Program-made: the position numbers and the translations under genes | Virus record (IMG/VR): IMGVR_UViG_3300037043_000022 | Direction: 5' to 3' (one strand) | Source of the DNA: an uncultured virus (IMG/VR IMGVR_UViG_3300037043_000022) | Lineage: Duplodnaviria; Heunggongvirae; Uroviricota; Caudoviricetes | Length of the DNA: 64,000 bases | Shown: piece after piece, positions 47,973 to 63,390 of the stretch | How positions within the stretch are numbered: the stretch's first letter is position 1 | Layout: the number at the start of each line of letters is the position of its first letter | The notes under the pieces: generated by a model | The model's database searches: none | What the model saw: the letters and a program-made list of their open reading frames with translations, nothing else | Told to the model about the DNA's origin: nothing

Positions 47973-47997
47973 GGAAAGGAATCGGATCGCCCGGCGC

Positions 47998-48053: not shown

Positions 48054-48112
48054 CCGACTGGCTGGTCGGCTGGCCTGCTCGTCTGGTTTTTCTGAGAGAG
48101 GGAGATACTACT

Positions 48113-48319
48113 ATGGCGAAGGTACTCAACAACGACACGGGGTCCCTAAAAGTGGGGAAAGCCGGGGAAAACCTCAAGGTCGGGGATAAAATCCGGATTT
48201 CTGGCGAGGACAAGATCAGGACCATCAGCTACATCATGGGTGCGGGAGAAAAGACCCATGTCTGTACCAAGGGGTTCGGACCCTTCCCGTTGGGTGAGGT
48301 CGAGTTCTCGGCTGAATAA
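48113..48319 (+). CDS. Small protein, tandem paralog 1 (KOW/SH3-like LKVGDKIRI)
   Basis: 68 aa; GGGAG RBS; highly similar to 48452..48667. Confidence 0.85.
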   Translation: MAKVLNNDTGSLKVGKAGENLKVGDKIRISGEDKIRTISYIMGAGEKTHVCTKGFGPFPLGEVEFSAE

Positions 48320-48381
48320 CCCATCTGATGAGGCTGGGTGGTCCCCAGCCGAAAGGGGGAGGATTTTCTCTCCCTAATGGG
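48320..48381 (+). ncRNA. Type I hammerhead ribozyme HH1 (CUA; predicted cut after 48376)
   Basis: CCCAU-CUGAUGA-GGCUGGG/CCCAGCC-GAAA-GGGGGAG/CUCUCCC-UA-AUGGG. Confidence 0.93.
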
Positions 48382-48451
48382 AAACCAGAAGGTTTCGTAA
48401 GGTGAGTGTTTCACCCGACGATAATCTTCTAATTTGAGAGGGAGGTGTAGA

Positions 48452-48667
48452 ATGGCGAACAAAGTGACGAACAACGACACGGGCAGCTTGAAAGTGGGAG
48501 CGGCTGGTGCGAATCTCAAGAAAGGTGACAAGATCCGTATTGCCGGAGAAACGGCGGATCGGGTCATCAGCTATGTCATGGGTGCGGGAGAAAAGACCCA
48601 TGTCTGTACCAAGGGGTTCGGACCCTTCCCGTTGGGTGAAGTTGAATGGGAAGCCTCGCAGGACTAG
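48452..48667 (+). CDS. Small protein, tandem paralog 2
   Basis: 71 aa; GGAGGT RBS; identical MGAGEKTHVCTKGFGPFPLGEVE. Confidence 0.85.
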   Translation: MANKVTNNDTGSLKVGAAGANLKKGDKIRIAGETADRVISYVMGAGEKTHVCTKGFGPFPLGEVEWEASQD

Positions 48668-48695
48668 TCACACCGGGTGAAAGCCCGCCGAGGGT

Positions 48696-48749
48696 ATGAT
48701 CCCTCGGTAGACAACCTTCCACAAAGAGGGTTGTCTACCCAGGGATCAT
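48696..48749. other. Long intergenic hairpin (about 22 bp)
   Basis: ATGATCCCT-c-GGTAGACAACC / GGTTGTCTACC-c-AGGGATCAT. Confidence 0.8.
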
Positions 48750-48795
48750 TGTGATCCTAATCGAGTAGAGTAAAGTCAGAAAAAGGAGGTGTCCA

Positions 48796-49002
48796 ATGAA
48801 TGAAAACCTGTGCCAGTTGGGACTGAAATGCTTCCCGTCCCCAGACAAGAAGATGGTGGAAATCAGGAAAAGAAGTGGTCAGACCGTCTATCGTGGGACG
48901 GTCGATGAAGCCGCGAATTACATAAAGATGTTGAATCGTGCACGCCACATGCAGGTAATCGACCTGCAGGCAGCTATCGAGGCTGCGCTGCAAGCCAAAT
49001 GA
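48796..49002 (+). CDS. Hypothetical protein
   Basis: 68 aa; AAGGAGGT RBS. Confidence 0.8.
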   Translation: MNENLCQLGLKCFPSPDKKMVEIRKRSGQTVYRGTVDEAANYIKMLNRARHMQVIDLQAAIEAALQAK

Positions 49003-49006
49003 CCTG

Positions 49007-49040
49007 TGCCACCGGGGACAATAAATCATCCCCGGTGGCA
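49007..49040. other. Perfect 12-bp hairpin directly after a stop codon
   Basis: TGCCACCGGGGA-N10-TCCCCGGTGGCA; no U-tract. Confidence 0.7.
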
Positions 49041-49277
49041 ACATATACAAGCCTATTGTCATATCTGACCGATTTCGGGGGATATAGCAACATATACGCT
49101 TTTATTGCCGATGAACATACAAACCAAGAAAGGAGGTGCGACATTCTTGTGAATTAAGACCCAGTCCGGAGGGAGCCATTAGATACTGGGAGGCAAAATA
49201 TGCTTGTGCTCCTGACCGTAGATCCCGGTACAATTAAAGAAGGAGGTTTCTTATGCGATATTCGTAAAAAATAAGAA

Positions 49278-49434
49278 TGCAGCACCGCACAACGGTCGAA
49301 AGCCCTCGACCGAAACTAGCTGCTGAAGATGGGGGAAAAGCACATGAACCAACTCTTCATTGGATTGGTTCATATGCAAAGTACCCCAGTAAGCCGAAGA
49401 GAACCCGCGTGCAGGAAGAAGCTAGGGTGCTGCA
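49278..49434 (+). ncRNA. Unclassified multi-stem structured RNA directly 5' of HH2
   Basis: Pairs UGCAGCACC/GGUGCUGCA, CGGUCG/CGACCG, CUAGCU/AGCUAG, AUGAACCAA/UUGGUUCAU; two AGUA/GAA loop-E-like motifs. Confidence 0.6.
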
Positions 49435-49435
49435 G

Positions 49436-49492
49436 CCCATCTGAGGAGACCGGTGGCACGGTCGAAAGGGGAGGGAAACCTCCCCTAATGGG
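49436..49492 (+). ncRNA. Type I hammerhead ribozyme HH2 (cut after 49487)
   Basis: CCCAU-CUGAGGA-GACCG/CGGUC-GAAA-GGGGAGG/CCUCCCC-UA-AUGGG. Confidence 0.93.
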
Positions 49493-49519
49493 AGCCACCA
49501 AACTGAAAGGAGGTGTGGC

Positions 49520-49705
49520 ATGCGTCGAAGCACCAGCAAGATCGTAGAGAAGGAATATTTCTCCAACGACTGGAAGTGGTCATGGTCTTGTCGTGCGAAG
49601 ACCCGTTGTTCTCAGAAAATCAAAAAGCAGCTGAAGAAAGCTGCACACCGTCGTGCTCGTCGCGGTGATGGTGTTATCTTCCTCAACGGTTATGATGTCA
49701 TCTAA
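49520..49705 (+). CDS. Small basic protein
   Basis: 61 aa; AAGGAGGT RBS; KKQLKKAAHRRARR. Confidence 0.75.
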   Translation: MRRSTSKIVEKEYFSNDWKWSWSCRAKTRCSQKIKKQLKKAAHRRARRGDGVIFLNGYDVI

Positions 49706-49813
49706 TAGAAACGTATATGTTGTTATATCCCCCGAAATCGGTCAGATATGACAATAGGCTTGTATATGTAGAAACCCCACAAATAACATCCACCAAACGA
49801 AAGGGAGGGAGAG

Positions 49814-50158
49814 ATGAGAAAAAAGAGATTCGCATTCATTTCAAGACATGTACCGACCGAGGATCAGATTCAGTTGGCAGACCAGCTTCGCATCGAGTTG
49901 GTCCACGTTGGTGATGAGGATGCATTCAGTGAAACTGCTGCTGGTGATAAAGATGAGGAGTACGAAGGTGTAGTTGTTGTCAATCCTGCTGCTGCACTGA
50001 ATTACATCTTGAAAGTCCCTGTGGGCGTTTTCGAAAATGCTGCTCGACCAGGAGTCGACGGCAAACCGTCATTTAAAGCAGTATCATTCCGTGTTTGGAA
50101 TCTCCAACAAGGTGATGATTGTTACTGGCATTGTGATAAAACGATCAAGGAGAAATGA
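49814..50158 (+). CDS. Hypothetical protein
   Basis: 114 aa; GGAGGG RBS. Confidence 0.75.
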   Translation: MRKKRFAFISRHVPTEDQIQLADQLRIELVHVGDEDAFSETAAGDKDEEYEGVVVVNPAAALNYILKVPVGVFENAARPGVDGKPSFKAVSFRVWNLQQGDDCYWHCDKTIKEK

Positions 50159-50159
50159 C

Positions 50160-50312
50160 ATGATCCCAGACGGAATGGATGTAGCCGCAGAACAAGCTGC
50201 CGAGGAATTCAACAAGGAATGGTCGGCAAAAGAAGTCGCCATTTGGTGGAAGAAATGGTACAAACATGCTGGTCACAAACGACTGGGACGGATTCTTGTG
50301 GGTAAATCATGA
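50160..50312 (+). CDS. Small hypothetical protein (WWKKWYKHAGHKRLGR)
   Basis: AAGGAG RBS before MIPDG. Confidence 0.65.
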   Translation: MIPDGMDVAAEQAAEEFNKEWSAKEVAIWWKKWYKHAGHKRLGRILVGKS

Positions 50313-50563
50313 AGGAGGAGGGTGCCAAAATGGATCACGATGAACTTCAAAATGCCGAAACACCAAATTGGCACCGAGAGATGGCAATTTATATTCGTAA
50401 AACGACAGGTTGCACACATGAAGTTGCTATGGATGTCGTCGGGAAATTTATTGAGATTCATTTGAATGCCTGGAACCAACGATGGTGTGCTGGTTATAAC
50501 GCGGGAGCAGAAGAAACGCGGTCGCGTTTTGCCAGGCATAAAGAACGGGAACCAGATGTCTGA
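50309..50563 (+). CDS. Hypothetical protein
   Basis: 84 aa. Confidence 0.65.
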   Translation: MKEEGAKMDHDELQNAETPNWHREMAIYIRKTTGCTHEVAMDVVGKFIEIHLNAWNQRWCAGYNAGAEETRSRFARHKEREPDV

Positions 50564-50574
50564 GGAGATGCCAT

Positions 50575-50913
50575 ATGAAAATGCTTCTGATTGATGATTT
50601 AAGAGTAATGACCGTCCACCGCACAGCCAGAACATATGATGACGGAATTGTGGCATTACAGAATGGTCCCTGGGATGTCCTGTACTTGGACCACGATTTA
50701 GGTGAGGAGAAGACGGGATATGATATAACCAATTGGCTGGAACAAAATCCTGCCTATCAACCAGAAGCGGTCGTATTAGTAACTATGAATCCAGTGGGGA
50801 GAGAAAACATCGCTCGTGCGTTAGTGGCAATGGGGTACATCAGAATTAGTGTTACCGAGTTGGTTCGGTGTGATCCAGTTCAAACTAACCCAGAACGTAT
50901 TGATGCACAATGA
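50575..50913 (+). CDS. Cyclic-phosphate processing receiver (cREC) domain protein
   Basis: LLIDDLR, LDHDLG, TGYD, NPVG signature. Confidence 0.85.
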   Translation: MKMLLIDDLRVMTVHRTARTYDDGIVALQNGPWDVLYLDHDLGEEKTGYDITNWLEQNPAYQPEAVVLVTMNPVGRENIARALVAMGYIRISVTELVRCDPVQTNPERIDAQ

Positions 50914-51176
50914 GCGTCAACGTTTTGCCGCAACAAGTCACCCTTAGAGCTAACGCCGCAAGCGTTAGATTGGGTGATTTCCACGTAAAATGTAGCCGGG
51001 AAAACCGGAGCATCTTAAATGTGGATAGCGGTTTTCTTTGTTCTGGTTCAAACTAACCCAGAACGTATTGATGCACAATGAGCGTCAACGCTTGCTCGGT
51101 GTGCAATAAGTCAGTGCACAATGAGCTGCACAATGAGCGTCAACGCTTGCTCTATGTGCATTAGGGTCGCATACGG
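50878..51176. repeat. 45-bp perfect direct repeat (50878-50922, 51046-51090) with further TGCACAATGAGC copies
   Basis: GTTCAAACTAACCCAGAACGTATTGATGCACAATGAGCGTCAACG x2; sub-repeats at 51115 and 51127; GGGTCGCATACGG at 51164. Confidence 0.9.
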
Positions 51177-51354
51177 GAGCTATTAAGTAAGCATTAGCAA
51201 GCTGTTAATATCCTATTAGTGAAATAATTAAAATATATAATATATTTGCGATAATCAAGCCTCTTACACGCACTTAAAGGGTTCTTCAACCAACACCAAC
51301 AACGGGATTGTTTCGATGATTGGGAGGGAATGCGATGAGTGATGAGGCATTTGG

Positions 51355-51549
51355 ATGAGATTTAGGATTAGGCGGAAGTCTGATGGTGTTTTTTTGAGTG
51401 ATGATTTGACGTTTAAGTCTGTTCAAGAGATTATGGGTTGTTCTAACTTTAATTATTCGAAGCGTGACATTGTGTATTATACTACTAGTTGTGAAATAAA
51501 TGAAGTTATTTCGTTTGATGATGAAACTGAGTTGGTACGTGTTTTGTGA
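51355..51549 (+). CDS. Hypothetical protein
   Basis: 64 aa. Confidence 0.55.
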   Translation: MRFRIRRKSDGVFLSDDLTFKSVQEIMGCSNFNYSKRDIVYYTTSCEINEVISFDDETELVRVL

Positions 51550-51839
51550 TTGTTCAGGGGGATTATAACGTGAAAAACCATGATGATCTCGATGCGTTGG
51601 CTGAACTAGTTGGTGCGCATGTGATTGTGAAATGTTGGGAGTGTGATGTTTTTCTGTTGGAGAACGGGGAACGACCGGTCTGTTATATGTCTGACAAACC
51701 AGATGGTGTTTATAGATGGTTTGTTATGGATATGGGGAATGGTATGTTTATGGTCCGAACAGCAGATGAAAAGAGTGATTTGAGATTCTGGGATAGGGAA
51801 TGGATCACCTGGCGTGCACCGGATGTTTTTCAGGTGTGA
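51546..51839 (+). CDS. Hypothetical protein
   Basis: 97 aa; coupled. Confidence 0.6.
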   Translation: MIVQGDYNVKNHDDLDALAELVGAHVIVKCWECDVFLLENGERPVCYMSDKPDGVYRWFVMDMGNGMFMVRTADEKSDLRFWDREWITWRAPDVFQV

Positions 51840-51946
51840 TTTGGAAGAGGCGGATGTCAGAAGTAGACCGCCGGGATGTAGATGTCATATGCATATGATT
51901 TATGAATGTGATTACTGTATGGGATATGCCTCGGAACCATAATTGA

Positions 51947-52005
51947 CCCATCTGATGAGACTAGCTAGTAACTAGTCGAAAGGGGATCTCATATCCCCTA
52001 ATGGG
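51947..52005 (+). ncRNA. Type I hammerhead ribozyme HH3 (cut after 52000)
   Basis: CCCAU-CUGAUGA-GACUAG/CUAGUC-GAAA-GGGGAU/AUCCCC-UA-AUGGG. Confidence 0.93.
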
Positions 52006-52030
52006 AAACTAAGATGTTGGGAAATAATAA

Positions 52031-52276
52031 ATGAAAATGACAAAAGAAAGGGAAAAGAAAATGATAAAGGGTGATCGGGTTGTCGTTTTGAATGATGTTT
52101 TCTGGTCTGATGGCGAAAAACAGCATCTTCATGTCAGTAAAGGAATGACTGGTGTAGTGACTGACGTTGAACCATTTGAAGACGGTCGACCCAAAATGAT
52201 CGTGAAATTTGAAAACGATGCGAGTCGTCAAATTTGGAGTGATGATTTTAAGAACTTCCAGCGCCTTAATGAATAA
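52031..52276 (+). CDS. Small KOW/SH3-like protein
   Basis: IKGDRVVV...GMTGVV. Confidence 0.7.
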   Translation: MKMTKEREKKMIKGDRVVVLNDVFWSDGEKQHLHVSKGMTGVVTDVEPFEDGRPKMIVKFENDASRQIWSDDFKNFQRLNE

Positions 52277-52336
52277 CGAGGAACGGATGAATAAAACGAA
52301 CTCAGAAAACACTAATAACCATTTAAGGAGAACGCC

Positions 52337-52714
52337 ATGACAAGAAAAGAACTACATGATTGGATTAAGATGATTGAGGACAAGAACAAGAACGCACCGG
52401 TACTGGTTGATTTTACTACGCACGTGCCAACCACTGAAGAACTGAACAATCTTTGTTATCTCAGCATGAAGTACGTCATTGGTTGGCAGATGAGGGCAGT
52501 AGATTTTTCCGTAGTCATGATGATGAGCGGAACCGCAACGACCGTGAATGATTTAGACAATTCGTTCATCCCTGCATTGGCCGAATACATGTGGGACCAT
52601 CTCATGAGCGAGCCTGATGAGATCTCATCAGAAGACCTTGAGAAAGCAATTAAGGCCGTCCGTGATATGCTGTATGGAATGGATGAAAACACTAGAAACG
52701 ATATGACCAAATGA
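52337..52714 (+). CDS. Hypothetical protein
   Basis: 125 aa; AAGGAG RBS. Confidence 0.75.
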   Translation: MTRKELHDWIKMIEDKNKNAPVLVDFTTHVPTTEELNNLCYLSMKYVIGWQMRAVDFSVVMMMSGTATTVNDLDNSFIPALAEYMWDHLMSEPDEISSEDLEKAIKAVRDMLYGMDENTRNDMTK

Positions 52715-53037
52715 CACAGATAAAGGATAAGATCAAGACCAAACGTGGAAAGACGACGCTCAACTACGCCGTTTGCCACGACCGAATGAAGATGGTTTTA
52801 ATCTCCAAGAAAGCCATCAAGGAAAGTCCTGGTTTCAATATCGATGATAAAATCGACGAGCACGGCTCGTTTGAAGTACCAGACGGTACCGACGTCTTCT
52901 TTGATTCGGGCTTTTGTACGTTCGTCATCAAGGAAGACGGGAAATACGTTTACGCCTTACCGGAAATGCGGGGCAAGTACGAAATCGAAGAAGCGAACCT
53001 CACTAAACTGGTGTGTGACGTGTGGACTGAATGGTAG
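52711..53037 (+). CDS. Hypothetical protein
   Basis: 108 aa. Confidence 0.7.
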   Translation: MTQIKDKIKTKRGKTTLNYAVCHDRMKMVLISKKAIKESPGFNIDDKIDEHGSFEVPDGTDVFFDSGFCTFVIKEDGKYVYALPEMRGKYEIEEANLTKLVCDVWTEW

Positions 53038-53054
53038 GAGAGAACCAATGAGAT

Positions 53055-53297
53055 ATGGCAAGTACCACGGCATATGTCAAGGACACTGCAAACATGAATA
53101 AGCCATGTTCGTGTGGCAGCGGCAAAAAGAAGAAGAAATGTTGTGCTCGGCAGGTTCCCTCCACAAATATTGAACGGATGGAACCGAAGGTAAAGAAAAA
53201 GATTTCACCGGCATTGTTATCTATGTTCAGCCCTTATATTGGGAAAGCAATCGAGAACGAACTCAGAAAACTACCATTAAGGAGAAACGAGCGATGA
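53055..53297 (+). CDS. SEC-C motif protein
   Basis: NKPCSCGSGKKKKKCC. Confidence 0.8.
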   Translation: MASTTAYVKDTANMNKPCSCGSGKKKKKCCARQVPSTNIERMEPKVKKKISPALLSMFSPYIGKAIENELRKLPLRRNER

Positions 53298-53482
53298 CAG
53301 TCAGCCAACTGGACGTTAACATTATTCTGACTTCACAGAAGAAGGAAGACGTCGAGATCTTTATTGATCTTGAATTAATTAAGATCCGTGATGGGACTGC
53401 AGACGTTGAGAAAATCGCTGGGCAAATCAAAGAGGCAGTCATCGCCGTTCTAACCAAATATGGCGATGTGGACGAGTTCTGA
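53294..53482 (+). CDS. Hypothetical protein
   Basis: 62 aa; AAGGAG RBS. Confidence 0.65.
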   Translation: MTVSQLDVNIILTSQKKEDVEIFIDLELIKIRDGTADVEKIAGQIKEAVIAVLTKYGDVDEF

Positions 53483-53500
53483 CATCAAGGAGGATTAAAA

Positions 53501-53821
53501 ATGGGAATGAATGCACTTGCACAACTGTATATGAAACCCAGAACGGCAAATGAATTTGAACGAGAAGAAATCATGGGCAAAGCTTATGATTTCAAGGCGT
53601 TTGCCGTCAGGGAGAATCTGGTCGTTCTCCTGTTGGATGATGGGCGGTTGTTTCTGGAAGTAGTAAAAAATGATGTTGTCGCTTGTGATTGGTATCCCAA
53701 GGATAAATGGGAACGAGTTGGTTTCTGGTTCAATAAGTCATCTCTGAAAGACCTGGGCGACAGGTTGCGGAAAAGCAATAAACGCATCAAAATAAACTCA
53801 TGTCTGTGGGAATGGAGATGA
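53501..53821 (+). CDS. Hypothetical protein
   Basis: 106 aa; AAGGAGG RBS. Confidence 0.75.
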   Translation: MGMNALAQLYMKPRTANEFEREEIMGKAYDFKAFAVRENLVVLLLDDGRLFLEVVKNDVVACDWYPKDKWERVGFWFNKSSLKDLGDRLRKSNKRIKINSCLWEWR

Positions 53822-53845
53822 AAGGAGCAACGACTGCAACGACGG

Positions 53846-53921
53846 CTGGCAGCGGCAGTAAGACAAGATGGTCAGGCACTTAAGTATGTCAAGGACCCAG
53901 CCCTTAGAGAGGAGATAAAAC
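53846..53921 (+). pseudogene. Orphan 3' remnant of a DUF4116 gene
   Basis: Reads LAAAVRQDGQALKYVKDPALREEIK; its last ~36 nt recur at about 54612-54648. Confidence 0.7.
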
Positions 53922-54692
53922 GTGCACTGGATGACGAACGTAACCAAAGAACAATTAAATGACGTGATCCAGGCAATGAGGAAGATTGATTATGAACGAA
54001 TGAAGGATGCAACGATTGTCAAGAAATTGATGAATGATGAAATAGGTTTAGGGAATGTACTCAAACACCTAAATGAGCAATTTCCTGAAATATGCATGGC
54101 GGCAGTGCAACAAAATCGTCGAGCGCTTGAATTTGTTGAAGAGCAGACGCCAGACATATGTCTAGCGGCGGTAAAACGAGATGGTCTGGCACTTCATTAT
54201 GTTAAGGAACAGACGCCGGAATTGTGCATGGTAGCAGTAAAACGAAACGGTTTTGCACTCGATTATGTCAAGGAACAGACGCCGGAATTATATCTGGCAG
54301 CAGTACAACAAAATGGTTCGGCACTTGAATATGTCAAAGAACAGACGCCAGAAATATGTATGGCAGCAGTGCAACAAGATGGTGATGCACTTCGATATGT
54401 CAAAGAACAAACGCCAGAAATATGTATGGCGGCAGTAAAACAACATGGTTGGGCACTTAGATATGTCAAATATTCTGCGAACAACAAAGAACAGACGCCG
54501 GAAATGTGCATGGCAGCAGTAAGACAAAATTGTTACGCACTTCAATTTGTTAAAGAACAGACACTGGAAATATGTATGGTAGCAGCGCAACAGGATGGTT
54601 GGGCACTTCAATATGTCAAGGACCCAGCCCTTAGAGAGGAGATAAAACATGGAGAGACGAAAAGGAGGGTAAATGAATGGGGATGGACGTAA
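53922..54692 (+). CDS. DUF4116 repeat protein
   Basis: 24-aa repeats EQTPEICMAAVQQxGxALxYVK. Confidence 0.9.
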   Translation: MHWMTNVTKEQLNDVIQAMRKIDYERMKDATIVKKLMNDEIGLGNVLKHLNEQFPEICMAAVQQNRRALEFVEEQTPDICLAAVKRDGLALHYVKEQTPELCMVAVKRNGFALDYVKEQTPELYLAAVQQNGSALEYVKEQTPEICMAAVQQDGDALRYVKEQTPEICMAAVKQHGWALRYVKYSANNKEQTPEMCMAAVRQNCYALQFVKEQTLEICMVAAQQDGWALQYVKDPALREEIKHGETKRRVNEWGWT

Positions 54693-55129
54693 CCGGGACT
54701 AAACCGAGAAATGAACAGGGCGAGTATTTCAGGGCTAATATTTGGTCATGGCATCCACTACATGAATTGTTGGGCATCATCAACAAACGAAACAATAATG
54801 AGTTGATTTCTGAGGAAGTGTACGTTGCAATGAGGTATAACGACGGTGCGGGATTGACCGACGAACAATGTCTGCGCGTAGCCGAGGAATTAAACGAAAT
54901 TATCAACAAACCAGCACTGGCTACCGAATTTGGTTTTGTTCTTGGTGACAATGAATTACGTCTTCCTACAAATTCGTTGGTAATTGACGAGAAAACCAAT
55001 GCGTTTGTCAATATGAAAACGTACAAGGGCAGTAGGGATGATCTGGTCAGTCCATACAGAATTAATTTGGATCACCTAAAGGAATTCATTACATTTCTAC
55101 AGAACTGTGGTGGATTTTCCGTATATTAG
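54677..55129 (+). CDS. Hypothetical protein
   Basis: 150 aa; MGMDV..GEYFRANIWSWHPL..CGGF. Confidence 0.8.
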   Translation: MGMDVTGTKPRNEQGEYFRANIWSWHPLHELLGIINKRNNNELISEEVYVAMRYNDGAGLTDEQCLRVAEELNEIINKPALATEFGFVLGDNELRLPTNSLVIDEKTNAFVNMKTYKGSRDDLVSPYRINLDHLKEFITFLQNCGGFSVY

Positions 55130-55138
55130 GAGGGGTGC

Positions 55139-55330
55139 ATGAGCAAAAACAAAGTCGGTGATCGCGTTACGATTAGAGTGAAGGGTGAGACGCATCCAAA
55201 ATATGATGGCATGGTCGGCAAAATCACTAAAATTGTCGGGGAAGTCCCGCCTTGTATGTGGGAAGTGACGTTTGACGATGGCCGATCAATTCTGATTCGT
55301 GGTACTGAGTTGGAGGTTACAAATGAATGA
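55139..55330 (+). CDS. Small KOW/SH3-like protein
   Basis: KVGDRVTI...GMVGKI; AGGAGG RBS. Confidence 0.7.
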   Translation: MSKNKVGDRVTIRVKGETHPKYDGMVGKITKIVGEVPPCMWEVTFDDGRSILIRGTELEVTNE

Positions 55331-55535
55331 AACGAAAACGAGTTCTGAGAAGTACAAAATGTGGTTAGATGCAGTGACACGTTGTTGGGAATCTGGATGG
55401 CGATGTGAATCCGACTGGACGTTCATCTCCCCGTCGGGGACGCGCCATGATTTATCTGCCGCTGATCTAAGGCAATTATCACGCATCGAACGTGAAGGGC
55501 TGTTCATGAACCAAACTTCTAATCGTTCTGTATGA
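55323..55535 (+). CDS. Hypothetical protein
   Basis: GGAGGT RBS before MNETK. Confidence 0.6.
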   Translation: MNETKTSSEKYKMWLDAVTRCWESGWRCESDWTFISPSGTRHDLSAADLRQLSRIEREGLFMNQTSNRSV

Positions 55536-55624
55536 CAATGGTTCTCTGAGATGACAGACATTTCGCAATGTTTACGCGATAGAAGAACGGATTTAATGGT
55601 TGGGGGCGATGAAAGGAGACAGAA

Positions 55625-56794
55625 ATGAATGTAGCTGAATTGAAGGGTGCGATCGGACTGTGTCACAAAGTACAAGTGCCCATCATGATTTGGGGTCATC
55701 ATGGGATGGGTAAGTCAAGCATCGTCAGACAAGTTACACAAGAAATGCAAATTGGTTTTGTGGATTATCGGGCTGCACAGATCGAGGCCACGGATCTCCG
55801 AGGATTTCCGGACAAAGAAAACGGCTATACGATCTATCGCCCACCAGCGGAGTTGCCCCGCGAGGGACAGGGGTTGTTCTTTCTGGATGAATTAAATCGA
55901 GCAGATGACCCGGTCATTCAGGCGGCGTTCCAATTGATCGTTGAGAGGAGAATTGGCACGTACGAGTTACCAACCTCATACGACGACAATGATAATTTCA
56001 CTGGTTGGTCAGTGGTCAGTGCTGGCAATTACAACAACGGATACCACGTCAACGATTTCTGTAAGGCATTCATTGGACGATTCTGCCACGTAGAATTGAC
56101 CATGTCAGAGGATTACATGACGGAATGGATGAGCTACGTGACCAACAGAACAAATACGGAAGTTACGCGGATCATTCAGTTCATCGGTTCAGATCCGGCC
56201 AATCTCTGCACGAGAGAAAAAGGTTCATTGGATTTCAAGATCGAACCATCACCGCGATTGTGGGAGGCAGTGGGACGCATTGAGAAACATGCCCCAGAAT
56301 TCCCATTGGACGTCGTGCGTGACGTCAGAGCGGGATTGATCGGTCGTGAATTGGCCATCCAATATGAAAAGGTCAATTTCGAGATCGAACCGAAGGACAT
56401 CCTGAATTATGGCGTGAAACCGATCTATGATCTGGGACGAGAAATAAGCCGTGATCTGATGGCCGGTCTGGTGTGGGGTGTGGTTTCATATATCAGAAAT
56501 TTGGACAAGAAAGTAACCAAAGCGCAAGTCAGCAATGTCTTTGATTTCGTGGAACATCTCTGCGACTCGAAGGAAAAAGACATGGCCATAGTCTTAGCCT
56601 CACAAATCCTTAAGCCGCAATATCAAACCATGGGAATTGTGATCGTGGCTAATGCAGCCGTCGCCGACATCATGTCAAAGACGAACAACATTTGGCTGAA
56701 AGAAATACCGAGCAGAACCAAAATCTTCGAGTTGACAAAACAACTGATGTCAAAAGACGAAACGGAAATGGCACCAAGAGGTTCTCCTGATTAA
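55625..56794 (+). CDS. MoxR-like AAA+ ATPase
   Basis: WGHHGMGKS, TDLRG, FFLDELNRA, SAGN, RFCH, SPRLWE. Confidence 0.92.
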   Translation: MNVAELKGAIGLCHKVQVPIMIWGHHGMGKSSIVRQVTQEMQIGFVDYRAAQIEATDLRGFPDKENGYTIYRPPAELPREGQGLFFLDELNRADDPVIQAAFQLIVERRIGTYELPTSYDDNDNFTGWSVVSAGNYNNGYHVNDFCKAFIGRFCHVELTMSEDYMTEWMSYVTNRTNTEVTRIIQFIGSDPANLCTREKGSLDFKIEPSPRLWEAVGRIEKHAPEFPLDVVRDVRAGLIGRELAIQYEKVNFEIEPKDILNYGVKPIYDLGREISRDLMAGLVWGVVSYIRNLDKKVTKAQVSNVFDFVEHLCDSKEKDMAIVLASQILKPQYQTMGIVIVANAAVADIMSKTNNIWLKEIPSRTKIFELTKQLMSKDETEMAPRGSPD

Positions 56795-56830
56795 GACCAC
56801 GTTCAGATTTACTCAAGAGGAGGAAATCAG

Positions 56831-57118
56831 ATGGCAAAGATTAGGACGTCAATTAACGTGGATGCTGACGGACTTTACCAAATTCTTGTTTTGGAAAATG
56901 GTAAAATGGTCTACGTGGCAGAAGAGCATTGCGTCAATGGGAACGGGACGGCTTACAACGTGGGTGATTTGACGGATGATCACACTGAACGCAGGGCGAC
57001 GCTGGATGATTTGATGGGGATTCCAGCAAGGATAAAGAAAGAATTTCCGTGTCTTGATCCTGAAGATCCTGAATTTTTTGAAACGTATCCTGGCTCTGAA
57101 CTTCAACGGCCCATCTGA
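56831..57118 (+). CDS. Hypothetical protein; its stop codon lies in the HH4 core
   Basis: 95 aa ending ...RPI*; GAGGAGG RBS. Confidence 0.75.
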   Translation: MAKIRTSINVDADGLYQILVLENGKMVYVAEEHCVNGNGTAYNVGDLTDDHTERRATLDDLMGIPARIKKEFPCLDPEDPEFFETYPGSELQRPI

Positions 57119-57171
57119 TGAGGTTGGATGACGACCAGCCGAAAGGGGAGAGGAAATCCTCCCCTAATGGG
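57110..57171 (+). ncRNA. Type I hammerhead ribozyme HH4 (cut after 57166)
   Basis: CCCAU-CUGAUGA-GGUUGG/CCAGCC-GAAA-GGGGAG/CUCCCC-UA-AUGGG. Confidence 0.93.
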
Positions 57172-57221
57172 AAAGTCAAGAAGGGGACGTGGGAACCACC
57201 TTTTCAAGGAGGAAGATGCTG

Positions 57222-57845
57222 ATGAAGAAAGAACTCGATGTGAAGAACGTCACCACGCTGAGCGCCCAGGTGACGACGGGAGATCTGGTGGCAATTAAGG
57301 TCTCTGAATTTGAAAACAAATTGATGGTGGAGGAGAAAAAGATCGTGGCCGAACTGGCGGCGACGAAAAAAGAACTGAAAGAGAACAAGGACGGCTTCGA
57401 AAAGATGACTTCTCAGTCAGCGACCAATTACTGGACGCCGAAAGTGAAAAAGCTGCTGGAAGCGTACAAGGATCTGAACGTGAAAGTGAAATGCAGCATG
57501 CAGGCGTCAATCGTGGGACCGTGTGAAAAGGCAGAAACGCTCATGTTGAGCGTGGTCGTTTCGGTTGACAAAGAACACTCATACTGCAACAACCTGTACG
57601 ATGCGCAACTGGAACGGAAGTTGAACGACGAGGAAAAGAAAGCGATCAAACGCAACGAAATGCTGGAAAAGGCGATCGATGACGCCCAACGGAAGATCAT
57701 CGAAATCCGCACGAAACTCTCCAAGATCGGCACGATGGAAAGAGCGGTTCGTGCTGAAATCGCCCGCAAGACGCTCGGCGCGTCAGGATTCGCTAACGTC
57801 GCTTTAGCGATCGCCGACATCAAAGTGGACGTGCTGGAGAAATAA
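57222..57845 (+). CDS. Coiled-coil hypothetical protein
   Basis: AAGGAGG RBS; heptad-rich. Confidence 0.8.
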   Translation: MKKELDVKNVTTLSAQVTTGDLVAIKVSEFENKLMVEEKKIVAELAATKKELKENKDGFEKMTSQSATNYWTPKVKKLLEAYKDLNVKVKCSMQASIVGPCEKAETLMLSVVVSVDKEHSYCNNLYDAQLERKLNDEEKKAIKRNEMLEKAIDDAQRKIIEIRTKLSKIGTMERAVRAEIARKTLGASGFANVALAIADIKVDVLEK

Positions 57846-57851
57846 ACAGTC

Positions 57852-58151
57852 ATGACCGAGGGGATCGCTGACAAAATGAATGTTACCATCGTAGTTCCAA
57901 CCATGGAAGGACGACTCGACGATGATGTGAAGCCGATCGTCCTTCCAGGACATCTCAATCAAGAAGAAGCAAGAAAAATTGCTTTAGACTTTGGCAGCGG
58001 TTATCCACATTGTTCGATCGTTTCCGTACCGGATGGACACCTTGCAAATTTCTCGAACGACGTCAATCCGCCGCTGGAAAACGGTCTGGTCAGTGAAGAA
58101 GTACAAGGACATTTAGTTCTTCAGTTTTATCACTCATCTTTGCCCATCTGA
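57852..58151 (+). CDS. Hypothetical protein; its stop codon lies in the HH5 core
   Basis: 99 aa ending ...LPI*. Confidence 0.65.
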   Translation: MTEGIADKMNVTIVVPTMEGRLDDDVKPIVLPGHLNQEEARKIALDFGSGYPHCSIVSVPDGHLANFSNDVNPPLENGLVSEEVQGHLVLQFYHSSLPI

Positions 58152-58199
58152 TGATTTCCGTGGCAGGAATGAAAGGGGAGGATTTTCTCCCCTAATGGG
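58143..58199 (+). ncRNA. Type I hammerhead ribozyme HH5 (cut after 58194; U.U at the base of stem II)
   Basis: CCCAU-CUGAUGA-UUUCC/GGAAU-GAAA-GGGGAG/CUCCCC-UA-AUGGG. Confidence 0.85.
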
Positions 58200-58222
58200 A
58201 GCCTAATCGAAAGGAGGATAAC

Positions 58223-58912
58223 ATGGAAATGGAAGTGCTGGGAGCAGTTAAAAACGAGGACGGCACGTGGGAGATGAGCGTCAATCCAGAACCACTGATC
58301 AACGCCACCGGTGAAGTGATTTACGGTGGAAGAGAAGAGATCATCGCAGCAATAAGCGCTACCTGCATGAAAGAATCGTTGGAAGACGCCGATCTGACCT
58401 GGATTAAAACCAACTGGAACAACATAAGAGTAAGCGAAAAACCGGTCTTTGTCGGTCAAGACGTAAACAGAGCATGTGAATTGGCAAAGAAATACGGTGC
58501 AATAGTAATTGACTATCCTTACACGAAATTGCCGGACGACATAAAGTTCAAAGACGGACTTCTGATCTATGATCCGAAACAGAAAACGCGAAGAGAACGA
58601 ATGAAAAAGAACAAGATGAAATCCGGCGACTTCCCGCTGGACAATTTGAAGCTGATGGCCAAAGAACTCAGTCTGCGACTGCAGTCGCAATTCGGTGAAA
58701 TTGGAAAGTTGATCGACTGGATCTCATACCGAAGAGTGCATCTCAATAAGAACAATTTCATGCATTTCATCGTGGCTGCCGATGCGGTGTTGATTAAACT
58801 GGGCGACGATGAAAGAAGCGAGACGTTTAAACGCTTCGTAGGTGAAATGCAAACGGGAGCCGACGCGACCGACAAGAAGTTTGGGGAATGGTTAAAGGAG
58901 AAAGAATGTTGA
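58223..58912 (+). CDS. Hypothetical protein
   Basis: 229 aa; AAGGAGG RBS. Confidence 0.75.
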   Translation: MEMEVLGAVKNEDGTWEMSVNPEPLINATGEVIYGGREEIIAAISATCMKESLEDADLTWIKTNWNNIRVSEKPVFVGQDVNRACELAKKYGAIVIDYPYTKLPDDIKFKDGLLIYDPKQKTRRERMKKNKMKSGDFPLDNLKLMAKELSLRLQSQFGEIGKLIDWISYRRVHLNKNNFMHFIVAADAVLIKLGDDERSETFKRFVGEMQTGADATDKKFGEWLKEKEC

Positions 58913-58959
58913 AACGAAATTGGTCACGACGCTCATGACGAAGAAAGAGAGGAGCAAGA

Positions 58960-59700
58960 ATGAACGGCAAAGAATTGATAGACGAGATCAATGCGTTGGT
59001 CAGACAGAGACTTGGGGAGAAATGGCCCAAGATTGACGGCGTGAGATACGTGATCTCCATCTCTCCGGAAGCTAGAGGTTCACAATTTGCCAGGTATGGT
59101 TCCCTGTTGCTTGCGCAAATGCAAATTGAAATTGACGGCAAGACGTTTGATTGGAACGTTTATATTCAAGGCAAACAATTTCGCATCAACAACAATTATT
59201 ATGCGGACATAGATGCGTTGATGGCCGGAATACCAAAGATCATTGCATCCAAACGCAAGGCGGTAAGTAAAATCCCCACCCCACCGGAGGAAATCATCAA
59301 ACAACGCGATGAATTGATTAAGAAAATGTTGGATAAGGGAACGATTGAAAAGTTCGATGACAAAGGCATCGTTCACTTTAATCTTCCAACGGGGACTAGA
59401 CGAATCAACGATTATTTGGTTAAGGACACCAACGTCGTCATTTCAGAGGTTGCGGAGGATGTGCCATTAATCCAGATAGGGCGGCGATTACGGCACGATG
59501 CCGGTCTCATCGTGATTGGATGTCTCCGAGAACAGCGTAATCCTCATCGTCGATCAGTTAATGAGCCGTTAGACACGCAATTTTGTGATTCAAAGTCAAC
59601 GACGTCGATCTGGTTAATGTCGAGCCAATGCTTAATAGTATTGACGATTCTATCTTTCTGTGAAAATTCATGTTCCCAAAGATATCTAATTTCATATTGA
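58960..59700 (+). CDS. Hypothetical protein; 3' end overlaps the antisense endonuclease gene and may be disrupted
   Basis: GAGGAG RBS; 157-bp convergent overlap. Confidence 0.6.
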   Translation: MNGKELIDEINALVRQRLGEKWPKIDGVRYVISISPEARGSQFARYGSLLLAQMQIEIDGKTFDWNVYIQGKQFRINNNYYADIDALMAGIPKIIASKRKAVSKIPTPPEEIIKQRDELIKKMLDKGTIEKFDDKGIVHFNLPTGTRRINDYLVKDTNVVISEVAEDVPLIQIGRRLRHDAGLIVIGCLREQRNPHRRSVNEPLDTQFCDSKSTTSIWLMSSQCLIVLTILSFCENSCSQRYLISY

Positions 59701-60599
59701 TTTGGAAAATTATTCATTATATAAGAAGATTTTGCCGCATCTCTACTGATGATGTCCGGCTTTGAATGCCAATAATCACCCTGACATTCGATGAGTAACG
59801 TTTTGTTGCCACGAGGAATGACACAATCGAATTGATACGGACCGATCATACATTCTTTGTCTGACGGTCCATCTTCACGTTCTTTAAAATAATTGATTTT
59901 AAGATCATCTAATATGGAATAAAGCGTCTTTTGAATGCTTGAAACTTTTGGTTGGTCGCGCATTTTTTGTCTAAATTGTTCGTCGGTGCGCCACTTATTG
60001 CGCATTTTCTCTGCCATTTTGATGCGATATTCCGGATCTTGTAATTTATTGAGTATCTTATCTCTATACTCCTTATTTTTCCACAATTCTTTCGACGATT
60101 CGACGATTGATGTACGATATTCATCGTTTTGCCAATTTTTTCTATTATTCATGACGACCTTATTGCGAAATTCGTCGTTTGTCCATGCTTCTTTTGCTTG
60201 TCTCGTTCTTGCTTTTATGGCAGCAACATGTCGTTCATGATCCGATAAAATTTTCTGCCAAGTTGCTTTAGCTGCAATCGACGCCTTTATTGGGTCTGGT
60301 TTGATTGTCTTATTCCTCTCAATGAGTTTAGCAACGTGAATAGGATCAGTTCGTATCTTACTCATTTTAGTACGACGTTCCTCGTCATTCCAAATTTTCC
60401 TACTGCTTGAAACCACGAGTTCACGAAACTTTGGGTCCTGCCATTGTCTTTTCGCAGTACATCGTTTACAATGATGTTTAGTAATTTGTAAATCTGATTC
60501 GCGACGTATTTTCCTCGTCATTTCAACACCGCAGTCATCACAGTTGACGACTGCGATGAAAGGAGGTAAAGAATTTTGAGTTTTGATCCAGTTGAACAT
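59544..60599 (-). CDS. Putative free-standing homing endonuclease (helical basic repeats plus Vsr/DUF559 PD-(D/E)xK domain)
   Basis: WxxxEYR repeats; YQFD, LIECQGDYWH, RD..K, YLWEHE; lone antisense gene in the + strand block. Confidence 0.8.
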   Translation of the reverse strand: MFNWIKTQNSLPPFIAVVNCDDCGVEMTRKIRRESDLQITKHHCKRCTAKRQWQDPKFRELVVSSSRKIWNDEERRTKMSKIRTDPIHVAKLIERNKTIKPDPIKASIAAKATWQKILSDHERHVAAIKARTRQAKEAWTNDEFRNKVVMNNRKNWQNDEYRTSIVESSKELWKNKEYRDKILNKLQDPEYRIKMAEKMRNKWRTDEQFRQKMRDQPKVSSIQKTLYSILDDLKINYFKEREDGPSDKECMIGPYQFDCVIPRGNKTLLIECQGDYWHSKPDIISRDAAKSSYIMNNFPNQYEIRYLWEHEFSQKDRIVNTIKHWLDINQIDVVDFESQNCVSNGSLTDRR

Positions 60600-60670
60600 G
60601 ATGTTCCTTTCAATTGTTGTTCCATCCCACGGTTTATGTTTGACAAAAATACTAGAGAAGGAGGTGACAA

Positions 60671-61993
60671 ATGATCCAAATGGAAAGAATTCAAAAAGTG
60701 CGCTGCCAACTTCTTATGCGGAAGCCATGGTATGGGACTTTCGCTTCAATGATGAGGTGGCGTGAGGTAAATGCTAGAGACTGTAAAACGATGGGCGTGT
60801 CGGTCATTTCTGATGGCACGGTGGATTCGGTCTACAATCGTGAATTCGTCGATAGTCTCAGTAATGAGGGATTAGCATGTGTGATCATACATGAAATTGA
60901 TCATATCATCAGATTGCACTGCATCAGGAAAATGAGTAGGATCAAGGAATGTTGGAACATCGCGGCTGATGCGATTGTCAATGGCACAAAAGATAATCCA
61001 AACATCAAGATCGTGGGCAAAGATTATAGCGAAAAATGTTATCTTCCAAATAGTGTCGTATGGTATACGGCACCGGAAAGCAATCTCGGCACAGAACAGT
61101 ATTACGACTGGTTGAAGAAAAATTCTACTATCTGTCCGACATGCGGTGCAATGGTCATTCATTTCGACCCGAATGCAAAAAATGACCAGAGTAAGGGTAA
61201 GGGTCAAGGCCAGAATCAGAAGGGTCAAGGCCAGAATCAAGGCCAGAATCAAGGCCAAGGTGGTGGAGGTAGTCAAAATCAGGATGATCAGGGTCAGGAG
61301 AAGGATGAACATACGTGTCCGACGTGCGGTGCTAAACCAGAAATGGTTGATGATCATGGTATGTGGGATAACAGCACGGCAAATGAGGATGATGCTCGTG
61401 CGATTGTTGATGGCATGGTCGCACAGACATGTAAGTCCGCTGGAAACGCACCGGGTCATCTTGAAGAAGCCATCAAAGCATTGAAGGAAGTACGCACTAA
61501 TTGGATGCGTGAGATGAACGAATGGATGGGGAAGAAATGCGGCGGAAGACGCAATACGTTTTCCAGATTGAATCGCCGACTCCCTAGATTCGGCATACCG
61601 GGATCGACCAGCAGGGCGATGGTTGATCTAAGCGTATTCTGTGATACGTCTGGATCAATGGGACCGGATGAAATCAGTGAAGCGTTCAGCAACATTGAAA
61701 AACTCGCCTACCGATCTAAAATCAGATTAATTGAATTTGATCATGGCATAGAACACGTCAGCAAATACCGGAAAGGTGATTGGAAGAAAATTAAAATCCA
61801 CGGTCGTGGTGGGACGTCGATCGTCAGAGCACTGAAAGAGGCAGAAGAACGCGGTTTGATCGGTGACGTCAACGTAGTCATCACCGACGGTTATCTAGAA
61901 TGGCCAGAACAGAAATCATACCCAATGTTGTGGTATGTCGTATCATCCTCAAATCAAATGCCCACATGGGGAAAAGTAATCAAACCAAATTGA
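60671..61993 (+). CDS. DUF2201-type metallopeptidase plus VWA domain protein (MoxR partner)
   Basis: HEIDH, WNIAAD, G/Q linker, DDH, DTSGSM, GRGGT, ITDGY. Confidence 0.92.
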   Translation: MIQMERIQKVRCQLLMRKPWYGTFASMMRWREVNARDCKTMGVSVISDGTVDSVYNREFVDSLSNEGLACVIIHEIDHIIRLHCIRKMSRIKECWNIAADAIVNGTKDNPNIKIVGKDYSEKCYLPNSVVWYTAPESNLGTEQYYDWLKKNSTICPTCGAMVIHFDPNAKNDQSKGKGQGQNQKGQGQNQGQNQGQGGGGSQNQDDQGQEKDEHTCPTCGAKPEMVDDHGMWDNSTANEDDARAIVDGMVAQTCKSAGNAPGHLEEAIKALKEVRTNWMREMNEWMGKKCGGRRNTFSRLNRRLPRFGIPGSTSRAMVDLSVFCDTSGSMGPDEISEAFSNIEKLAYRSKIRLIEFDHGIEHVSKYRKGDWKKIKIHGRGGTSIVRALKEAEERGLIGDVNVVITDGYLEWPEQKSYPMLWYVVSSSNQMPTWGKVIKPN

Positions 61994-62006
61994 GGGAGGA
62001 GTAAAC

Positions 62007-62315
62007 ATGCGGAAAGAGATAGATGCAATTTTAGAATCAGGATGGAGATTAGGCATAGTTACATGGGAAAAATCAGATTGTGTTTACACTGGCATAGGGG
62101 CACAAAAAATTGGAACAAAAGATAAAAGCAGTTTTGTACCAATAGCATACGTTTTTACATATGATGGTGAAATCGATTGGGATGGTAAAGATGAAATTGA
62201 TTTTAATATGTCGGATTATGATTTAAGCAAAGACGAAAGAAAAGCCATTGAAAAATTTCTTGCATCTAAAAACAAAGAAAATTTTAAAGGAATAAGAATT
62301 GACGGGGCAAAGTAA
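62007..62315 (+). CDS. Hypothetical protein
   Basis: 102 aa; GGAGGAG RBS. Confidence 0.75.
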   Translation: MRKEIDAILESGWRLGIVTWEKSDCVYTGIGAQKIGTKDKSSFVPIAYVFTYDGEIDWDGKDEIDFNMSDYDLSKDERKAIEKFLASKNKENFKGIRIDGAK

Positions 62316-62344
62316 TCAAACCAAATTGAGGGATCCAGATAAGA

Positions 62345-62629
62345 TTGGAGAAAAGAATGAATGAAGAGAGACTGTTGGATGCAACTGAATTACGGAAATT
62401 AATGCTAACTAAGGTGGTTAGTAAAATTAAGGAATTAAATGAACTCATTGAAGGAATGATGGAACAGCCAGCTGTTGAACTGAGTTACGATGAGTTGAAT
62501 GAAATGCTCGATCTGTCCATTGATCATGAATGGAACAACAAACCGAAGAAGATAATCTTCAAAGCAGGTAAAGCGGCTGGATGGGTAGAATTGCGATGTC
62601 CAATCAGGACAGTGATGAGAAAAGTTTAG
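62345..62629 (+). CDS. Hypothetical protein
   Basis: 94 aa. Confidence 0.65.
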   Translation: MEKRMNEERLLDATELRKLMLTKVVSKIKELNELIEGMMEQPAVELSYDELNEMLDLSIDHEWNNKPKKIIFKAGKAAGWVELRCPIRTVMRKV

Positions 62630-62705
62630 ACCCCATCAAGGATGGAATACGGTTTTTACCCGCACTTCCAAAAACATTTTAAAATCTTGACTGAAGGAGA
62701 ACAAA

Positions 62706-62765
62706 CCCGTCTGACGAGACCGAATGGTCGAAACGGGGAGAGGAACAAGCGCTCCCCGTCACGGG
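62706..62765 (+). ncRNA. Type I hammerhead ribozyme HH6 (GUC; cut after 62760)
   Basis: CCCGU-CUGACGA-GACC/GGUC-GAAA-CGGGGAG/CUCCCCG-UC-ACGGG. Confidence 0.93.
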
Positions 62766-62806
62766 AAAAGAAACCCACCTAAAACCCCATTCTAAGGAGA
62801 AAACAC

Positions 62807-63004
62807 ATGAGCAGATTTGCCCTGATCGTGTTCGACGGTTGTAACGGTGACCAAAACAGAGGGGTCATTTCGGACGAGAAAGCTGTCGAGACGTTGGTGA
62901 ACGAGGGCAAACGCACGGAGGAAGAGTTGGAAGAATGTGAAGATGGAAGTGAAGTCATTATTGACGTTGAAGGTGACCAGCACAAACGTCTTCGCAAGCT
63001 GTGA
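62807..63004 (+). CDS. Small acidic protein
   Basis: 65 aa; AAGGAG RBS. Confidence 0.75.
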   Translation: MSRFALIVFDGCNGDQNRGVISDEKAVETLVNEGKRTEEELEECEDGSEVIIDVEGDQHKRLRKL

Positions 63005-63188
63005 CCCGCCGGAGCGAGCAAGGCGGCACGGACACCAACGGAGTGAGCAAGAACAAGTACGATCTAAGATAAAAACCCTTGAGATCACGAAAGGAGGTGC
63101 CACTTCAATTAGTTACCGATCATGTTCGACGTGAGCGGCACACGTCAAGGCCATTTAATTGCCGAACGGAATAATTGAAAGGGTAAAA

Positions 63189-63280
63189 CCCATCTGACGA
63201 GATCTTAATGATCGAAACAAGCACACCACACGGGTTATAAGGCACAGAAGTCCGCCGCCCGTTGGTGTGCTTGTAATGGG
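63189..63280 (+). ncRNA. Type I hammerhead ribozyme HH7 with extended stem III (GUA; cut after 63275)
   Basis: CCCAU-CUGACGA-GAUC/GAUC-GAAA-CAAGCACACCA/UGGUGUGCUUG-UA-AUGGG. Confidence 0.92.
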
Positions 63281-63303
63281 CAAGGAGATTAAAATCGTTT
63301 TGA

Positions 63304-63359
63304 TTGACGATGACTAGATGGTAACTAGTCGAAACGGGGAGTTCTCTCCCCGTCATGGG
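63304..63359 (+). ncRNA. Degenerate hammerhead HH8 (3' half intact; 5' stem I and core altered)
   Basis: UUGACGAU-GACUAG/CUAGUC-GAAA-CGGGGAG/CUCCCCG-UC-AUGGG; no CCCAU. Confidence 0.65.
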
Positions 63360-63390
63360 AAACCTAATCAAATCATAGAAAGGAGCTTGA

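Follow-up and report, generated by a model that had tools for sequence, protein, structure and literature searches.

The stretch of DNA analysed here (the window, 64,000 nucleotides (nt) long) belongs to the genome of an uncultured virus, IMG/VR record IMGVR_UViG_3300037043_000022, and corresponds to the minus strand of genome positions 104959-168958. The record is a single contig of 320,399 bp with direct terminal repeats and is rated 100% complete; the public runs containing this phage are groundwater and coal metagenomes. On the + strand of the window, a purine-rich gene block begins at about 48.1 kb, behind promoter-like repeats and a G-rich tract. Within the first 15 kb of this block lie eight copies of a hammerhead ribozyme motif (HH1 to HH8), seven of them with an intact core and one decayed, all on the strand of the genes that they separate. 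In this study, we propose that the intact copies are probably genuine type I self-cleaving hammerheads in + strand messages of a jumbo phage, where they would uncouple neighbouring gene blocks.

The motifs were located with a structural descriptor that asked for 4 bp or more in stem I, the CUGANGA strand, a hairpin for stem II, GAAA, A15.1-U16.1 as the pair closing stem III, and any base except G at H17. In its strict form it found six sites in the window (48320-48381, 49436-49492, 51947-52005, 57110-57171, 62706-62765 and 63189-63280) and none on the opposite strand, and allowing one mismatch at the base of stem II added a seventh at 58143-58199. The whole genome, searched on both strands, contains the same seven sites and no others, and all 30 dinucleotide shuffles returned zero. 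A covariance model, R1, was then built from the seven copies and run with filters off. At E<=10 it listed 24 matches in the window, eight of which were significant: the seven copies at 54-75 bits and an eighth at 30 bits, with the remaining 16 at 11.5 bits or less. Across the genome, R1 found the same eight matches and nothing further. A type III candidate at 91600-91736 (in the numbering of the window) was rejected, as its stems are weak, R1 does not find it and it overlaps both an RBS (ribosome-binding site) and a start codon. The common layout runs CCCAU (CCCGU in HH6), CUGANGA, stem II hairpin, GAAA, A-U-closed stem III hairpin, UA (UC in HH6 and HH8) and AUGGG. Every base of the core C3 U4 G5 A6 N7 G8 A9 / G12 A13 A14 / A15.1-U16.1 / H17 is present in seven of the eight sites, HH8 lacking a proper C3-A9 strand, and the core-adjacent pairs 1.1-2.1, 10.1-11.1 and 15.1-16.1 are intact in six of the seven complete copies, the exception being HH5. 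With pairwise identities of 52-77%, the copies are old and diverged and not recent duplicates.

Taken in order, HH1 (48320-48381) is complete, with a predicted cut after 48376, an R1 score of 75.4 bits and the hammerhead junction as its minimum free energy (MFE) structure (z -2.5). It directly abuts the TAA stop of a small gene of 68 amino acids (aa; 48113-48319, +), and the gene that opens the following unit (48452-48667, +) is preceded by a GGGAGG RBS. HH1 sits between tandem paralogs, the protein of 48113-48319 being 81.5% identical over 65 aa to that of the open reading frame (ORF) 48434-48667. The next three copies are complete as well: HH2 (49436-49492; cut after 49487; 71.2 bits; z -3.7), HH3 (51947-52005; cut after 52000; 65.6 bits; z -2.5) and HH4 (57110-57171; cut after 57166; 74.2 bits; z -2.7). 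HH5 (58143-58199; 65.6 bits) has an intact core and a U.U at 10.1-11.1; it would be cut after 58194 if active. Its fold has a z of -1.6, with 13 of 200 shuffles folding equally well, and given the mismatch beside the core it is probably slow or inactive. HH6 (62706-62765; cut after 62760; 57.2 bits; z -2.5) is complete, with a GUC site and the stem I CCCGU/ACGGG, and HH7 (63189-63280; cut after 63275; 54.3 bits; z -5.3), also complete, has a long extended stem III. HH8 (63295-63359) has kept stems II and III, GAAA and the GUC site, while its 5' core is damaged and stem I is absent. Its R1 match (63312-63353, 30.3 bits) covers model positions 13-55 only, and its MFE and centroid structures contain stems II and III without stem I. 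Judged by these features HH8 is a dead copy, and its would-be cut lies 36 nt from the same start codon that HH7 serves. The predicted cuts are separated by 1111, 2513, 5166, 1028, 4566 and 515 nt.

At each site, a cut would leave the RBS of the next gene with the 3' product. A stop codon adjoins or falls within the ribozyme in four copies: the upstream ORFs of HH2, HH4 and HH5 end at a TGA within the core CUGA, in addition to the abutting TAA of HH1. RBS-like GGAG or AGGAG motifs precede six of the seven downstream start codons. A preliminary description, made from the letters of this DNA, had reported seven complete type I hammerheads and one degenerate copy on the + strand, and all eight are at the positions given, seven of them found by the descriptor and all eight by R1, with the U.U of HH5 as a caveat. 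Its cut sites and unit lengths were identical on recomputation, and its statement that the left 47 kb hold no hammerhead is correct and applies equally to the other 256 kb of the genome. It had also placed the copies on the coding strand at gene boundaries, where all are indeed intergenic or overlap a stop codon, and had put the cuts about 30-75 nt ahead of the next start; the distance is 28-75 nt in six copies and 115 nt in HH7.

The fold of the motifs is supported by covariation. In the alignment of the seven copies, 98.3% of cells form standard pairs over 18 pairs, compared with 41-56% when the partners are slid by 1-3 columns, and compensatory changes are seen in 11 of the 18 pairs, a number not reached in any of 500 shuffles. 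The claim that stems II and III vary in sequence and still pair around a retained core is therefore borne out, apart from the single U.U of HH5. The three-way junction is both the MFE and the centroid structure in all seven copies (z -1.6 to -5.3). Furthermore, the centre of loop II in HH1-HH5 has its complement in a run of 3-5 nt starting 1-3 nt past stem I: UGGU is matched by ACCA in HH1, where the latter begins 2 nt past stem I, and the candidate pseudoknots of HH2 to HH5 are GUGGC/GCCAC, UAGU/ACUA, UGAC/GUCA and GGC/GCC. This interaction was assessed in 17 distinct sequences, seven from the array and ten from external contigs (two of the ten closely related to each other), with HH8, exact duplicates and low-scoring matches excluded. 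Complementarity of loop II to the first 9 nt past stem I added up to 53 nt over the 17 sequences, against 38.8 +/- 3.0 after permutation, and 2 of 20,000 permutations reached 53; for the ten external sequences alone, 138 of 20,000 permutations reached the observed total. At least 3 bp at an offset of 1-3 nt after stem I occur in 13 of the 17 sequences, and HH1-HH5 as well as eight of the ten external relatives have a pseudoknot of 3-5 bp between loop II and the 3' tail. In text passages of Perreault et al. (2011; PMC3088659), pseudoknots are described as a frequent means of tertiary bracing in hammerheads of all three types. A covarying pseudoknot of this kind speaks in favour of copies built for cleavage.

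Hammerhead cleavage leaves 2',3'-cyclic phosphate ends. Each hammerhead follows directly on, or overlaps, the stop of one gene block and stands shortly before the next start, and a transcript crossing such a site would be expected to cut itself. The upstream piece would then end in a folded ribozyme with two hairpins and a 2',3'-cyclic phosphate, and the downstream piece would start with a 5'-OH a few tens of nt ahead of its RBS. The likely effect would be that the stability and translation of adjacent gene blocks are uncoupled without a host RNase. Self-cleavage in vivo, co-transcription over the sites and a benefit to the phage are what we infer from sequence and placement.

Several observations, on the motifs and on their setting, weigh against this proposal. 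Stem I has only 5 bp. The U.U at 10.1-11.1 of HH5 fails the published search criteria, which in the passages of PMC3088659 compared here demand pairing at this position. In HH6 no pseudoknot was found near stem I, and in HH7 a pseudoknot is found only at another offset. No Rfam family reaches its gathering score in the whole window, so the Rfam hammerhead models that had been put forward as a check of the array do not detect it. With permissive filters over 47500-64000, the sole hammerhead match is a sub-threshold hit of RF03152 (RAGATH-1-hammerhead) at HH6, with 26.7 against 56.3 bits, and in a 101-nt stretch around HH1 no hammerhead family was matched at E<=10. No close relatives of the phage were found by megablast or by single-protein pattern scans, and tblastn matches stay below 30% identity. 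The co-oriented gene block extends for more than 40 kb past the window and the ribozymes are confined to its first 15 kb, which suggests that they are dispensable for most long transcription units of the phage. Finally, the array contains a gene on the opposite strand.

This gene (59544-60599, -; 351 aa) lies within the proposed 4566-nt unit and is the only minus-strand gene inside the array. Its coding score of 0.197 is as in true genes, compared with -0.27 to -1.29 in the other five frames, and its protein has 98 homologs with E values down to 3e-95. It aligns to residues 1-376 of homologs of about 500-560 aa, and their C-terminal Mom domain, which scores above the Pfam cut-off, is missing here. 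The homologs also show helix-turn-helix matches and a restriction-endonuclease-like (MTES_1575) match, which are weak and sub-threshold. The 3' end of the gene overlaps the + strand ORF 58960-59700 by 157 nt. Because this is a real gene, the array does not form a simple operon with all genes in one direction, and the 4566-nt unit is in doubt; the idea of one early polycistronic transcript cut into units, as previously advanced, is weakened by its position between HH5 and HH6. In favour of the proposal, terminator-like sites on the + strand are not above chance within the region. In two metatranscriptome libraries of two studies, contigs cover 24 of the 30 bins of 47000-64000, which is no proof of transcription and gives neither strand nor ends. 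Among the 16 RNA-library contigs listed, none bridges a predicted cut, and two stop within HH2 and HH7 short of the cleavage site. Given the low depth, and since RNA ends are not visible in contigs, neither this nor the uncovered bins were taken as evidence.

The short stem I, the mismatch beside the core of HH5, the broken HH8 and the lack of any Rfam score at threshold would also be expected if the motifs were inert, that is, copies of a once-active repeat element that no longer cleave at physiological Mg2+ and are without a function today. We consider this very unlikely. Despite their divergence to 52-77% identity, the seven copies have kept every core base, and their helices and pseudoknot covary, which is what selection for the fold should produce. 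The only copy without a working 5' half, HH8, did decay, and the retention of the full core in the other seven is counted as a further sign of selection.

Since no Rfam gathering score is reached, membership of the copies in the hammerhead class rests on their defining features and not on curated models. With the type I family RF00163 (in a clan with RF00008, RF02276, RF02275 and RF02277, and with the variant RF03152) they share the full consensus core, the three-helix junction, the open stem I and the H17 site. They differ from it in that stem I is a fixed 5-bp CCCAU/AUGGG helix plus a short pseudoknot from the 3' tail to loop II. The exact subtype pattern, with stem III also fixed, had no match in viral contigs, and a looser pattern of stem I and core gave 14 viral, 49 metagenome and 19 reference-genome matches. 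On the first 63 external loci, R1 gave one match each and none additional; matches of at least 35 bits are read as real hammerheads of the same layout, and those of 28.4 bits or less are without proper stems. In the genome collection, all 18 R1 matches lie below 28 bits and none of the 19 reference-genome pattern matches is convincing. Across the 63 external loci the strict descriptor passed only six matches, which gives no basis for excluding arrays there. The layout stop, hammerhead, AA with pseudoknot, RBS and start, with the stem I CCCAU/AUGGG, recurs singly beside unrelated genes in unrelated viral and metagenome contigs (loci L016, L010, L014, L033, L035, L062 and others), and this recurrence counts in favour of the proposal.

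Ahead of the array, a promoter-like repeat region (47604-47960, +) contains a motif of about 36 nt in three copies (at 47604, at 47700 with one extra T, and at 47826), followed by two related copies. The repeat region is a candidate start of the transcription unit, and its copies may be operators or promoters in series. Nowhere else in the 320-kb genome is the 20-nt core of this motif found, and a role of the repeat as a genome-wide promoter was rejected on account of this restriction. In both RNA libraries the depth is zero in the bin 47567-48133, which does not count as evidence for a start site. A G-rich tract of about 80 nt (47985-48060), with runs of 3-5 G, separates the repeats from the RBS of the first gene; it was excluded from the read comparison as a repeat where reads seem cut. 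Within the HH1-HH2 unit, two GC-rich intergenic stretches (48668-48780 and 49003-49130) form strong hairpins, one of them with an 11-bp stem at about 49008-49040. Coding scores are poor for several ORFs in these stretches, and Rfam gives nothing; the stretches may encode structured non-coding RNA.

The genes between the ribozymes include one for a cyclic-phosphate processing receiver (cREC) protein (50575-50913, +), which matches PF20274 with 3.6e-19 and 69.7 bits against a cut-off of 27 and is the sole copy in the genome. A DUF4116 repeat protein (53922-54692, +; PF13475, 6.2e-38) is 55% identical to a paralog at 63391-63936 (+; PF13475, 1.2e-33), a second DUF4116 protein encoded by the first gene past HH7 and HH8. 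A MoxR-like AAA+ ATPase (55625-56794, +) matches the ATPase family phrog_1297 with 1.7e-48 and AAA_5 with 7.6e-06. The DUF2201 protein at 60671-61993 (+; DUF2201_N 1.1e-21, DUF2201 1.5e-13) combines metallopeptidase and VWA-like domains, and VWA-like DUF2201 proteins are a partner type of MoxR ATPases. According to passages of Iyer et al. (2021; PMC7824862), the MoxR ATPase / peptidase-VWA pair is described for one group of jumbo phages.

The left 47 kb of the window carry genes for a helicase, an SbcC-like nuclease, a dCTP deaminase, a thymidylate kinase, a dUTPase, an endonuclease VII and a PurZ-like enzyme, and most ORFs there are without a PHROG match. Together with the completeness of the record, this indicates a novel jumbo phage and not a chromosomal prophage. 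The 421-aa protein at 43526-44791 (-) matches phrog_1211 (5.7e-34), an adenylosuccinate-synthetase-like family annotated as PurZ-type, and the interval 18.8-20.9 kb holds the genes for dCTP deaminase, dUTPase and thymidylate kinase. The PurZ-type protein and the nucleotide genes may hint at a modified-base genome. GC content is 0.38 to the left of 48 kb and 0.40-0.55 to the right; a high-GC island was considered and discarded, because GC averages 0.415 over the genome and the purine-rich + strand block runs on for more than 40 kb.

The presence of a cREC gene between HH2 and HH3 raises the question of whether its product acts on the ribozyme-made ends. By opening the 2',3'-cyclic phosphates, it could, for example, alter the stability of the fragments, make re-ligation or circle formation possible, or keep host sensors from seeing the ends. 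cREC proteins are predicted to process cyclic-phosphate ends (passages of PMC7824862), and in Ochrobactrum phage OC the homolog of the present cREC is flanked by a polynucleotide kinase and RNA ligase 1. The only cREC gene of the genome falls inside the array, which makes up 4.7% of the genome; one gene landing in such a fraction is weak evidence. As regards an association elsewhere, 154 cREC homologs were found at E<=1e-5, and PF20274 is present in all 120 of those listed. None of 50 whole cREC-encoding viral records had a type II hammerhead by RF02276, a model whose sensitivity is unproven since it was silent in all control genomes too. None of 80 cREC loci (1.44 Mb) matched the type I model R1 at E<=1, and neither of two GenBank phage cREC regions had any Rfam match at gathering score. 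A mismatch-tolerant three-topology descriptor recovered only 6 of 23 known positives and gave 4 matches in shuffles against 6 in the cREC loci, and its count was discarded. No RNA ligase or end-healing enzyme was found beside the cREC gene, whose neighbouring ORFs are without a family match, and neither RtcB nor an Rnl2-type ligase was found in the genome (the search for Rnl1 was uninformative). With the cREC systems of jumbo phages described in PMC7824862, the phage shares a stand-alone cREC and the MoxR ATPase / peptidase-VWA pair; the parts of that article compared here tie cREC to RNA ligases and NAD-related systems and do not contain the terms 'ribozyme' or 'hammerhead'. We therefore regard a coupling of ribozymes and cREC as highly improbable, even more so than a complete loss of ribozyme activity.

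A different use of the ribozymes is suggested by DNA variants of the locus. In one DNA run (X4), minor-variant contigs with a depth of about 200-290, compared with about 3,700 for the main form (about 5%), join 49495 to 60652 and 52012 to 62706. Position 49495 is 3 nt past HH2, 52012 is 7 nt past HH3 and 62706 coincides with the first base of HH6, while 60652 lies just ahead of the RBS of the DUF2201 gene. Hence three of the eight endpoints of four such 'skip' joints fall within 7 nt of a hammerhead edge, which is unexpected, as windows of +/-7 nt cover about 1.4% of the stretch; the 7-nt threshold was, however, picked after the data had been seen. Another X4 contig departs from the reference after 54683 and enters a hammerhead-like 3' half. 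It is conceivable that a hammerhead, its RBS and the following gene block form a module that is exchanged between co-occurring strains, so that the ribozymes persist by travelling with, or marking, the joints of cassettes, with own mRNA ends as the selected benefit. The mosaic look of HH8, with a stem II resembling that of HH3 and a stem III resembling that of HH6, would fit such exchange, as would the two paralog pairs that adjoin hammerheads and the occurrence of the same ribozyme subtype beside unrelated genes elsewhere, no protein of the array recurring in the 63 other loci. However, the X4 joints are single contigs with matching sides of 21-30 nt, joints in metagenomes often stem from other organisms or repeats, and repeats themselves draw assembly breakpoints. 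The evidence is also limited to one sample without long reads. Taken together, we consider cassette exchange an unlikely explanation of the array, and the uncoupling of gene blocks by self-cleavage remains the preferred one.

The transcript-cutting mechanism of the preliminary description is plausible and, from our comparison, is the published one. That description had spoken of isolated phage copies, which understates the literature, as clustered arrays, the processing idea and cleavage tests are all found in PMC3088659 as far as its passages were compared. There, several hammerheads flank genes or short gene blocks in prophages, and the proposal is that long phage transcripts are cut down to mRNAs the length of a gene or an operon. 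Three triple arrays were shown to cleave in vitro, and one in vivo (Perreault et al., 2011). A review of 2019 (PMC6765202) likewise states, in the part considered, that bacterial self-cleaving ribozymes cluster with each other and with certain genes and that polycistronic processing has been suggested, their roles being largely elusive. With the triple arrays of Agrobacterium tumefaciens, Azorhizobium caulinodans and Clostridium scindens (PMC3088659), the present array, compared by text passages, shares copies in the same orientation that flank genes or blocks, a processing role and the pseudoknot brace. In contrast to them, it comprises seven intact copies and one relic over 15 kb, all of type I, in a complete 320-kb jumbo phage and not in a prophage, and its blocks measure 0.5-5.2 kb with up to about eleven genes, one of them containing the opposite-strand gene. 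Among the papers covered by our search, in their running text, none connects jumbo phages, cREC or DUF4116 with hammerheads. Weinberg et al. (2015) reportedly list the genes found in association with twister and hammerhead ribozymes.

The array adds no new principle, and its value lies in being a clean test case, with a complete genome, seven exactly predicted cut sites, internal controls in the dead copy HH8 and the probably weak copy HH5, and a region present in at least two public metatranscriptomes. Its particulars are the tail pseudoknot on a hammerhead of type I, the failure of Rfam models to detect it, the jumbo-phage setting and a testable hint of cassette exchange. Annotation based on Rfam misses a whole subtype of type I, one in which stem I has 5 bp and the 3' tail takes part in a pseudoknot, and because Rfam is blind to it, arrays of this kind are probably under-counted. 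If the cassette explanation were true, co-occurring strains would differ by whole blocks joined at ribozyme edges, and a new block would gain its own mRNA ends regardless of the sequence upstream. This would explain why ribozyme arrays mark variable, small-gene phage regions, and the X4 breakpoints at ribozyme edges offer a checkable lead on why ribozymes accumulate in such regions.

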